36,243 nt of DNA from the UHGV virus genome UHGV-0229041; one strand, 5' to 3'. The notes under the pieces are model-generated. The model saw only the letters and a program-made list of their open reading frames with translations, had not been told where the DNA came from and searched no databases. This document shows, in pieces, positions 23,939-26,327 of the stretch. The position numbers and the translations under genes were made by a program. The DNA is from a virus. How positions within the stretch are numbered: the stretch's first letter is position 1; every line of letters begins with the position of its first letter.

Positions 23939-24129
23939 GATTCACCTCCGCAGAGGTCAAACGCTGGATGCAAAAAATCGCAGGTACATTTCTGCATCTG
24001 TGAAGGGAGAAGAGAGTTTGGATTGTATGTGCGCATAAACGTCCCCGTTTAGCGCAGAAGTCACCGGAGTTGTTCAGGCTCCGGTGACTTAATTATGACA
24101 AGTTGATTATGGAAAATCAAAGCTTGTCA

Positions 24130-24675
24130 TCAGAACAACGAATAATTTAAAAACTCTATAATTTCTAAGATTTTTTCACTTATCGCTGGAATGAAACGTA
24201 AAGCAAAATAGAGCCCCAAAAAACCCAATATTGAGTACGAAACCGTGATAGCGACTCTGTATTTTTTCTCGCCTCGTTTCACTCTCTCCCACTCAGTTTT
24301 AAGAACACTGGAACTATATTCAAAATACTGTCTGACCACATCTGTAATGTTAGATGAGCGATCCATTTTTAAAATGTAATCCTCAATGATTTTCAAAAGC
24401 TGAGACTCTTCATTAGTTAAGTTTTTACTGGATAACCTAAGCTTCACTTTTGCGGAAAGAAAATAAATTTTTCCAGCCACCTCAGGGAGCTTCTCAGGCG
24501 GAGTCGTGCGTAATTGTAAAAAGTTCTCCATCAATTCAGCTAACTCTTCCCTTAAACCATCTATCCACGCTTGCCGAAACTCAGATGTTTTATTCTCCTT
24601 AGTGATAACAAGCCCCACTCCAGCTGCAGCTGCGGCAATAATTGCGGCGACAACTGAGGCTATCCCTGCATCCAT
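24130..24675 (-). CDS. Hypothetical membrane protein of the cargo island (TM helix at each end)
   Basis: 181 aa, ATG with GAGGGG Shine-Dalgarno, hydrophobic N- and C-termini, AT-rich codon usage. Confidence 0.55.
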   Translation of the reverse strand: MDAGIASVVAAIIAAAAAGVGLVITKENKTSEFRQAWIDGLREELAELMENFLQLRTTPPEKLPEVAGKIYFLSAKVKLRLSSKNLTNEESQLLKIIEDYILKMDRSSNITDVVRQYFEYSSSVLKTEWERVKRGEKKYRVAITVSYSILGFLGLYFALRFIPAISEKILEIIEFLNYSLF

Positions 24676-24814
24676 GAATTACCCCTCAAAACAATATGAA
24701 TATGAATATGATTCGATGCCTTCAGCAATTGAAAACTAAAACTCCCTGTAATGTCACATCTGCCCATGAATGTGTTTTCTTCATACAGCTTTGCTGCAAT
24801 ATCTAAATCAGACA

Positions 24815-25141
24815 TTAGTCAGCGGTTCTCCCGCGCCAGCGTTTGTTACTTTCTGATATTCTTTCTGTATCAACGGACTCAACCTCACCTTCTGAAAACC
24901 TAACTGCATTAGCTTTAGCCATTGCCTTCCTAGCATCTTCTTCCGCCTGGCTAAAATGCACCTTCTTTCTTCCCTTGAAACTACCAACGCGAATTTTGGA
25001 AGAGGCCTGCGTCTTGTACTTGCTAATCCGTAATTGTGCCGCCAAATGGGCTTTTGCCTCGGTGCGGTTCGCTGGCTTCTTCTTTACTAATTCAAGGTCT
25101 AAATGGTACTGCTGCTCAGCTCTTAGTTTCTTCGGTTTCAT
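24815..25141 (-). CDS. Hypothetical basic protein of the cargo island (ATG at 25141)
   Basis: About 108 aa, Lys/Arg-rich MKPKKLRAEQQYHLDLELVKKKPANRTEAK; the ORF-track start 25159 is a TTG. Confidence 0.45.
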   Translation of the reverse strand: MKPKKLRAEQQYHLDLELVKKKPANRTEAKAHLAAQLRISKYKTQASSKIRVGSFKGRKKVHFSQAEEDARKAMAKANAVRFSEGEVESVDTERISESNKRWRGRTAD

Positions 25142-25469
25142 AATATCACTCTCAAACAAAGTCCATTTATCATAGAATAAAAGCCCTCTAAGAGCTTTGA
25201 TTTGTATCTATGCTAATTCCCGTCAATTTGTTCTTCATTTTACCTCCAGCTGTTGTGCTGCTGCAGTGGCATTCAATAGTTTTCCTTCTAAGCATCCTAC
25301 AAAATCGGTGACGAGTCATGACCAGTTCACGTAGTGCAATGAAATTACTGCAATCTATTATGACGCAAATGCGTCAATACTCGAATCAACTGATCATCCT
25401 GCCACGACTGAAATCTCAAATAGGCCGTTTCTCAAGTAAGAGATTTTGAATGCATTATTGGCTACTGAA

Positions 25470-25493
25470 ATAAAAAACCCAGCGCCAACTGGG
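25470..25493 (-). terminator. Intrinsic terminator downstream of the secreted-protein gene
   Basis: Minus-strand CCCAG-UUGGCG-CUGGG hairpin followed by UUUUUUUAUUU (plus-strand stem 25478 to 25493, A-run 25472 to 25477). Confidence 0.55.
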
Positions 25494-25512
25494 TTCATAT
25501 GAAATTTTTTTG

Positions 25513-26007
25513 TCATTTCCAATTGCAAGACTGTGAAATTTTTTCCACAACCTTATCAATCTCAGACAAGTCAAACTCAACTACTTGCATAGTTGATCCA
25601 TAAGGTTCAAACCCAAAAATAGCTTTTTTATGCTTAGCCAAGGTCTTTATAAATTGTATTGGTTGTGGAGCAAATGCAGAATCACCGCCTTCCCCACCTC
25701 CCCAAACACTCTTGACCGGCTTTCCGCCATCTAACCGCACTGTAATTCTTGGGTTGTCCGACCCCATATAATCATTGAATGATAAATAGGCATCTGTTTT
25801 GTTATCACTACAACGCAACACCAGTGAAGTTGCACGATCAGTACCTGCTTTGTTATATGAATCTGGTGATAAATTAAGAGCCACAAAGTCAGTCTGGTCA
25901 GTCATTTTATTTATCTCAGACTTTGTTATCCACGGCCCTAACTTCTCTACACCAGCATTTGCTGTAAACGAGGCACTTATGACAAAGGCTAAAATAAATT
26001 TTCTCAT
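25513..26007 (-). CDS. Hypothetical secreted/periplasmic protein with signal peptide
   Basis: MRKFILAFVISASFTANA signal-peptide-like N-terminus; AGGAGA Shine-Dalgarno; two Cys in the mature part. Confidence 0.55.
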   Translation of the reverse strand: MRKFILAFVISASFTANAGVEKLGPWITKSEINKMTDQTDFVALNLSPDSYNKAGTDRATSLVLRCSDNKTDAYLSFNDYMGSDNPRITVRLDGGKPVKSVWGGGEGGDSAFAPQPIQFIKTLAKHKKAIFGFEPYGSTMQVVEFDLSEIDKVVEKISQSCNWK

Positions 26008-26153
26008 AACCCTATCTCCTTGGATTTAAAGAACTAAATATTATCAAGTCTCTTGCCACTAGAAAACCCACTTTATTTCCAAACTCTGACGGCATTCCTG
26101 AAAATCCGCTTCATACTCACTTGCCCCGCCCTATCATCCTGAGTAGCTAACCG

Positions 26154-26327
26154 TTAAACAAACGTTCGCCAGACCTTACCATCAATGACCAGGATTCCTG
26201 CCCGCGCCATTTTTGCCGCAGCCTGATTTATGCTGGTTAATGTCATACCTGTTGTCGCAGCAACGTCCGGCGCACAGAAGCTCTTGTGCGTCTCCAGATA
26301 ATGAATAATTGCCTCTTTGCCCGTCAT
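26154..26327 (-). pseudogene. ren: ren, N-terminal 57 codons only (truncated relative to about 96-aa lambda Ren)
   Basis: MTGKEAIIHYLETHKSFCAPDVAATTGMTLTSINQAAAKMARAGILVIDGKVWRTFV matches the recalled N-terminus of lambda Ren; ATGA overlap with the P stop. Confidence 0.6.

Follow-up and report, generated by a model that had tools for sequence, protein, structure and literature searches.

A mobile prophage cassette encoding a predicted periplasmic protein of the VasI/TagO family

Vibrio cholerae VasI, for which export is predicted, is dispensable for Hcp/VgrG-1 secretion, is required to kill amoebae and contributes to the killing of E. coli (PMC3166118). This is the sole genetic phenotype described for the family, and it concerns T6SS killing, not phage resistance (PMC3166118). 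A 2026 review lists the function of TagO/VasI as “Unknown” (PMC13584744). Where the name TagO appears in papers on EHEC and STEC, it denotes the chromosomal T6SS-2 gene, and our literature searches for phage-borne VasI, DUF3121 or PF11319 found nothing. Among phage genes, a close described system is HK97 gene 15, the first-named moron, a superinfection-exclusion gene located at the junction between the tail chaperone and tape-measure genes (PMC3594210). Here we describe a cassette that has the hallmarks of a moron and whose predicted product belongs to the VasI/TagO family. The phage protein family to which it belongs is already catalogued as PHROG 1848, which lists no function.

The window, by which we mean the whole stretch of 36,243 nucleotides that was analysed (UHGV virus genome UHGV-0229041), carries a lambdoid prophage integrated in E. 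coli at tRNA-Thr beside proA. The gene had been described as prophage-encoded, and this was borne out; the isolated phage IdasGreatGrand also carries the cassette, and we found no paper mentioning that phage. On the minus strand, genes for a CI-like repressor, a Cro-like protein, YdaT, O and P are followed by a disrupted ren and the 164-aa ORF, and these by two hypothetical ORFs, the ybcN-ninE-ybcO-rusA-ylcG-Q genes, the lysis genes and the HK97-type head genes. Of 5426 complete E. coli genomes, 81 carry the cassette at ≥99% identity; 272 E. coli genomes match the query region, mostly just at its ren end, and 81 of these 272 have the cassette. All copies of 98–100% identity lie in the E. coli O-P-ren context. 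A search of the whole window against Rfam returned nothing at the gathering score. The positions of the features discussed below are collected in Table 1.

Table 1. Coordinates of the cassette, its parts and its surroundings within the window.
Feature	Position	Strand	Description and basis
Mobile unit	25469..26021	(-)	DNA homology, 76–79% identity, to copies 5' of tape-measure genes elsewhere
ORF	25513..26007	(-)	ATG start, 164 aa plus stop; translation
Sec-type signal peptide, codons 1–18	25954..26007	(-)	MRKFILAFVISASFTANA, predicted cleavage ANA-GV; heuristic basis
Shine-Dalgarno AGGAGA	26015..26020	(-)	7 nt 5' of the ATG
Predicted extended -10 element TGaTAATAT, weak -35	26038..26046	(-)	Consensus-level inference
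Intrinsic terminator	25468..25496	(-)	9-bp stem, 4-nt loop (25496..25475), then U-run
Low-GC island	24000..26150		About 34–44% GC vs 49–58% in the flanks; between ren and ybcN
Disrupted ren	26059..26327	(-)	RefSeq: frameshifted, internal stop; 3' end abuts the cassette

The initial annotation had singled out a 164-aa minus-strand ORF with a signal-peptide-like start and an AGGAGA Shine-Dalgarno, and each of these features was recovered. The protein sequence quoted there is the translation of the ORF in Table 1, and PHROG 1848 matches it over its full length (E = 2.7e-70). Compared with three homologs, the ORF gave dN/dS values of 0.10–0.13 at a dS of about 1.2; because dN/dS is about 0.1, it is a real gene under purifying selection. 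Its first residues fall into a basic n-region (MRK), an h-region (FILAFVISASF) and a c-region (TANA, whose positions -3 and -1 are both Ala), after which comes a Gly. In a Kyte-Doolittle plot with a 9-residue window the h-region reaches 2.8, and the remainder of the protein has a maximum of 1.03. The residues themselves vary among the 24 aligned homologs, but each of the 24 has this n/h/c layout and ends it in small residues, mostly Ala, at -3/-1. Residues 1–17 are unstructured in the AlphaFold model. We looked for a lipobox Cys at the signal peptide, found none, and dropped lipoprotein as an identity for that reason. We infer from the sequence that the product is an exported, non-lipoprotein, periplasmic protein; the mature form would have 146 aa, with a computed mass of about 16.1 kDa and a pI of 5.9. 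The RBS region, GAGATAGGGTT, is homologous to the GGGATAGGGAT of other cassette copies.

At its other end, the gene is followed by its own transcription terminator, one of the marks of a moron. The initial annotation had placed a GC hairpin and U-run at 25470-25493, which was essentially correct: the hairpin begins sixteen nt past the stop codon and is followed by UUUUUUAUUU. It has a dG of -12.2 kcal/mol (z = -2.0 vs shuffles). Nearly all homologs have a terminator directly after the stop, with stem sequences that differ (CCCAGC/GCTGGG, CCTCGC/GCGGGG, CCCTC/GAGGG and CCCGC/GCGGG). Across 16 distinct homolog terminators, all 112 of 112 stem cells pair, compensatory double changes occur at 3 of the 7 stem pairs, and the covariation score was reached by 0 of 500 shuffles. 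One lineage (57% identity; L015, L082-L086 and L088) has no terminator after the stop. There, a small ORF starting MKKYIFLIFILVLAVGGF, in the stretch just past the VasI-like gene (about 6513-6890), overlaps the stop codon of that gene (ATGA); it apparently encodes a membrane protein, and this arrangement suggests a two-gene variant of the cassette.

Upstream of the RBS, the predicted extended -10 element is offset from the ATG (-39) in the same way as the corresponding element of the homologs, and most distinct homolog sequences have TGnTAGGAT or TGnTAACAT at -39 to -47 from the ATG. The canonical TG spacing is missing from the lineage carrying GGGTAGGAT, and a strict two-hexamer scan of 26008-26153 called no canonical sigma-70 promoter. 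On this sequence evidence, the cassette probably has its own promoter. This putative promoter/5'UTR module, of the form CCCTGnTA...T ... GGGATAGGGAT-ATG, also precedes unrelated cargo ORFs in the tape-measure slot, including one for a 157-aa lipoprotein as an example of further envelope-directed cargo, and was never found on the opposite strand of the examined loci. Specifically, GATCCCTGnTA...T, about 25 nt and then GGGATAGGGAT-ATG lie 5' of ORFs for the 157-aa lipoprotein, a 113-aa protein and a 110-aa protein (L002 8505-8615; L003/L004/L093; L068 about 6540; L090). These cargo genes lie in the tail chaperone/tape-measure slot, and each ends in its own terminator. The AGGGAT of the RBS recurs as its reverse complement, ATCCCT, on the 5' side of the -10. 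The module may double as a shared lysogen promoter and a recombination linker that shuffles morons.

The extent of the mobile unit could be mapped to the base. When the window was compared by blastn with copies in the tape-measure slot, similarity started at 26015-26021 and stopped at 25469-25474, and so spanned exactly the Shine-Dalgarno, the ORF and the terminator. Similarity to copies in other slots was confined to this interval, as the description of the locus as a self-contained cassette would have it. Because the DNA homology is limited to RBS, ORF and terminator, the cassette is a mobile unit, and with its borders at 26021 and 25469 it provides a clean example of a moron.

In 5.8 billion proteins the close family forms 30 clusters, and every one of them comes from Enterobacterales. 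We inspected the context of homologs of 45–81% identity in Klebsiella, Pantoea, Salmonella, Citrobacter and Serratia genomes, together with 80 IMG/VR viral contigs, 3 GTDB genomes and one relative of 45% identity; the scan of GTDB representative genomes yielded only 3 close loci. These diverged copies belong to a siphovirus tail module and have a tape-measure ORF of 730–1220 aa beside them or close by, which in most cases begins 40–110 nt further downstream. One or two small cargo genes separate the VasI-like gene from the tape-measure ORF in some Klebsiella prophages. On the 5' side of the diverged copies there is a DUF6246 tail gene and then variable cargo (Ant antirepressor, Arc, KilA-N, YafO toxin, SocA). 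Viral contigs were also searched for more distant short-form relatives: the P0032 query found none, and the P0033 query found one locus, again with a tape-measure neighbour.

Related phages differ in whether the gene interrupts an otherwise direct junction of two genes. Erwinia phage vB_EhrS_49 lacks the VasI-like gene, and its DUF6246 gene directly precedes the tape-measure gene; in Klebsiella phage ST11-VIM1phi8.1, the same junction is filled by 4.3 kb of cargo in which the VasI-like gene comes last. DUF6246 is encoded in 322 phage records, 2 of which have a close copy of the gene, and close copies occur in only 3 phage records, two of them encoding DUF6246. Since related phages lack it, the gene is accessory.

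In all contexts the gene lies inside, and is co-oriented with, early or late operons, and homologs of as little as 45% identity still adjoin the tape-measure gene. This would suit a lytic-cycle function such as envelope conditioning, lysis timing or the prevention of progeny re-adsorption, with the gene belonging to the pR delayed-early operon here and to the late tail operon elsewhere. In lambda, tR2 lies downstream of ren, and the hairpin of the cassette would then be a tR2-like terminator overcome by antitermination. Because it is co-oriented with the O-P-ren and nin genes, the window gene could simply be delayed-early. However, most phages with the same tail module do without the gene, its terminator travels with it into an unrelated slot, and a promoter-like element is conserved on its 5' side. 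We therefore regard a lytic-cycle function as quite unlikely.

The moron reading also agrees with base composition: the gene has 37–42% GC vs 49–58% in the P/O and nin genes. It lies in a low-GC island that contains, besides the cassette, two unrelated ORFs that are not always beside it. These ORFs, at 24130-24675 (-) and 24815-25159 (-), appear to be a separate cargo module, because many E. coli copies of the cassette lack both (breakpoint 25363). A functional operon of the gene with the two downstream ORFs was rejected, because the E. coli copies stop matching downstream, at 25363 or at 25430-25435. One of the two encodes a protein of 181 aa whose N- and C-terminal segments are hydrophobic and which matches nothing in PHROG, Pfam or PADLOC; the other encodes a very basic protein of 108–114 aa (PHROG 14068, which has no assigned function). 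Both mosaic breakpoints fall inside an unusually long non-coding gap of 350 bp (25160-25512). A second terminator-like hairpin, of 8 bp with a weak T-tail, lies at 25180-25198 (-), just 5' of the 114-aa ORF. On the other side, the abutment of the cassette on the 3' end of ren suggests that its insertion, or a later deletion, destroyed ren. The sole ORF remaining in the ren remnant has 57 aa (26154..26327).

Low GC, an own terminator, a conserved promoter-like element, presence or absence among related phages and occupation of different slots together identify the cassette as a moron. It is a typical rather than an exceptional prophage cargo gene. Distant VasI-like genes also occupy classic prophage-cargo positions. 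We noted three such loci, of 25–28% identity, in Brucella phage BiPBO1 (L100 3012-4429), Klebsiella phage 3LV2017 (L099 5001-5429) and Escherichia phage 500465-2 (L098 4235-5465), the last of which has a record that appears to include the host genes flk, fabB and mnmC. The gene of BiPBO1 is directly downstream of, and co-oriented with, a CI-like repressor gene; distant genes also neighbour attR in P2-like prophages, one of them at a distance of about 180 bp; and the third of the loci encodes a 297-aa form, with genes for a zinc-ribbon protein and a hok-like toxin ahead of it.

The product had been assigned to no known family, and this did not hold. Residues 56–163 match Pfam PF11319 (VasI; formerly DUF3121) with 26.7 bits against a gathering cutoff of 26.5, a marginal pass. 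A profile of the subfamily, searched against 1.84 billion proteins, matched 3829 cluster representatives at E <= 1e-3, of which 1231 also reach E <= 1e-10. Nine of ten sampled matches carry PF11319 at the C-terminus, scoring up to 66.9 bits, and one also weakly matches IalB. In some of them PF11319 stands behind cytochrome c, DUF2939 or zinc-ribbon modules; in P0060, P0065, P0101 and P0125, the VasI domain is the C-terminus of much longer bacterial proteins with such fusions. This hints that the VasI domain is a general periplasmic binding or sensor module and not a T6SS-specific part. The database name overstates what is known.

All of 18 diverse sequences have Cys66 and Cys161; among them are relatives of 15–30% identity and E. 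coli T6SS-2 TagO. D93 and F145 are conserved alongside these cysteines in the family sample. The protein has the traits of the PF11319 family, namely predicted export, a Cys pair and a C-terminal C.W(K) motif. The sequence pattern would fit a periplasmic disulfide between Cys66 and Cys161. The subfamily has in addition an invariant motif, GFEPYGSTMQVVEFDL (FEPYGSTMQ), which is specific to it. Phages from six or more host genera share the protein in strongly conserved form; this conservation and the invariant GFEPYGSTMQVVEFDL argue that its partner is a conserved one on the host side and not a fast-evolving one of the phage.

IalB was the best structural match of the predicted structure. A sequence search of the PDB gave chance-level matches alone (E >= 0.15), Foldseek found nothing in the PDB at E <= 0.001, and the matches among BFVD viral structures were all uncharacterised phage proteins, among them RB16, KP15 and Vibrio VH7D. 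The PADLOC defence models did not match the 164-aa ORF. From profiles and model together, the product is a VasI/TagO (PF11319)-family protein with a predicted IalB-like fold, in a short-form branch specific to prophages. We are highly confident of the identity, that is, of a moron with a predicted exported, VasI/TagO-like product.

Periplasmic lysozyme or other enzyme inhibition was among the functions first suggested for the gene, as for proteins of the Ivy, MliC/PliC or PliG type. The product is small, predicted to be periplasmic and disulfide-bearing, and we have no other pointer in this direction; structural and sequence comparison revealed no likeness to Ivy, MliC/PliC or PliG. With no fold match, we rejected a lysozyme inhibitor, and enzyme inhibition in general seems extremely unlikely.

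The natural reading of a prophage gene with a predicted exported product, in a discrete unit with the hallmarks of a moron, is a role in lysogenic conversion of the envelope. Receptor masking or superinfection exclusion, as first suggested for the gene, may be part of it. In our preferred reading, temperate phages carry the cassette as a horizontally mobile unit in which a putative promoter and the RBS precede the ORF and the terminator follows it. In the repressed prophage it would be transcribed from its own extended -10 promoter, and during lytic growth by read-through from pR or from the late operon as well. Sec would export the product, which would be cleaved after Ala18 and take up a beta-rich, VasI/TagO-IalB-type fold in the periplasm, stabilised by the Cys66-Cys161 disulfide. 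This soluble protein would bind a conserved envelope or periplasmic component of Enterobacterales and thereby hinder incoming injection machines that cross the envelope of the lysogen, most likely those of superinfecting phage. Taken as a whole, we give this explanation a probability of roughly 0.5. The step of blocking entry, as HK97 gp15 does from the same genomic slot, is an analogy of position alone, and we put it forward tentatively. Against it stand that no exclusion protein is known to have this fold, that no PADLOC model matches the ORF and that the phenotype of V. cholerae VasI lies in T6SS killing.

A related possibility is a shield against T6SS spikes and effectors, or against the envelope toxins of competitors, in which the protein would serve as a periplasmic decoy or an immunity-like factor. 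Its predicted location, its status as prophage cargo, its kinship to a T6SS-associated family and the strong conservation of the cassette across hosts would all agree with such a role. On the other hand, the gene is unpaired with an effector gene, and among solved structures its product resembles none besides IalB and a Vibrio flagellar-motor ring component, and we consider such a shield to be quite unlikely as well. More broadly, lambdoid phages, siphoviruses with the HK97 slot, P2-like phages, Brucella phage BiPBO1 and Pasteurella phages may repeatedly have captured a VasI/TagO periplasmic core that the prophage deploys as a shield against, or a modulator of, phage tails or T6SS spikes. This broader idea is doubtful, and we offer it as speculation. 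If it were true, the 146-aa phage protein, which is easily assayed, would for the first time allow access to the binding partners of the VasI/IalB fold and hence to the role of VasI in T6SS killing.

What the locus adds is of modest novelty: VasI/TagO-like periplasmic domains are recurrent cargo of temperate phages, unconnected to T6SS loci. Should the protein block phage entry or T6SS attack, it would represent a new fold among prophage-encoded envelope defences and make the unknown function of VasI/TagO and IalB easier to study. Should it block neither, the cassette would be one more prophage cargo gene without an assigned role.

Compared with VasI/TagO (V. cholerae VCA0118 and E. coli Sakai ECs_0222), the phage protein shares predicted export, the C-terminal domain, the two cysteines (RC..N.T ... 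C.W) and D93/F145. It is shorter (164 aa vs 227 aa for VCA0118 and 247 aa for ECs_0222) and is 18% identical to the E. coli T6SS-2 TagO, ECs_0222, in just the C-terminal 100 residues. P0038, P0040 and ECs_0222 have the N-terminal Cys-helix module, C..RL.C[FY]D, which neither the window protein nor any short-form relative has. The TIGR03360 equivalog model gives 14.4 bits against a cutoff of 124.2, with model positions 84-187 alone matching. None of about 100 loci examined had a T6SS cluster around the gene; they were prophages or viral contigs, unlike the location between clpV/vasH and tssA (cf. Sakai T6SS-2). We therefore rejected an identity as T6SS TagO proper, for the low TIGR03360 score, the missing N-terminal module and the lack of a T6SS locus, and a recent capture of the host's own T6SS tagO, for the identity of only 18%. 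The phage VasI-like genes are distant, short-form relatives without T6SS linkage in the examined loci.

The host genera that carry the gene commonly have T6SSs. The phage protein might accordingly act like VasI/TagO and boost or tune the T6SS killing of the lysogen, raising its competitiveness, a role for which its membership in PF11319, the T6SS-2 cluster of E. coli with a TagO of its own and the V. cholerae VasI phenotype in killing (PMC3166118) can be cited. The limited identity, the missing module, the TIGR03360 score, the genomic locations just described and the subfamily-specific FEPYGSTMQ motif all speak against a T6SS helper, which we judge unlikely.

IalB (PF06776; PDB 3dtd, Bartonella henselae) shares 9% identity with the window protein, which has no match to the IalB HMM, and unlike the prophage-borne window gene it is a chromosomal gene of alpha-proteobacteria. 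By analogy with Bartonella IalB, the best structural match, the product might be a virulence or adhesion factor acting on eukaryotic cells, and Zheng et al. speculated that VasI is a possible adhesin (PMC3166118). The mechanism of IalB is itself unknown, the phage protein has no outer-membrane anchoring or secretion signal beyond Sec, and the hosts of the gene include environmental and commensal bacteria as well as plant-associated ones, Pantoea among them; together with the 9% identity, this makes virulence or adhesion very unlikely.

For the preferred reading, a moron whose product would protect the lysogen at the envelope, HK97 gene 15 is a close parallel. Both are autonomous cassettes with an own terminator and a probable promoter, and the slot of the diverged copies is that of HK97 gene 15, whereas the window copy lies in the ren/nin region. 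The proteins themselves are unrelated: HK97 gp15 is a small inner-membrane, YebO-like protein, and the window protein is a predicted soluble periplasmic, beta-rich domain.
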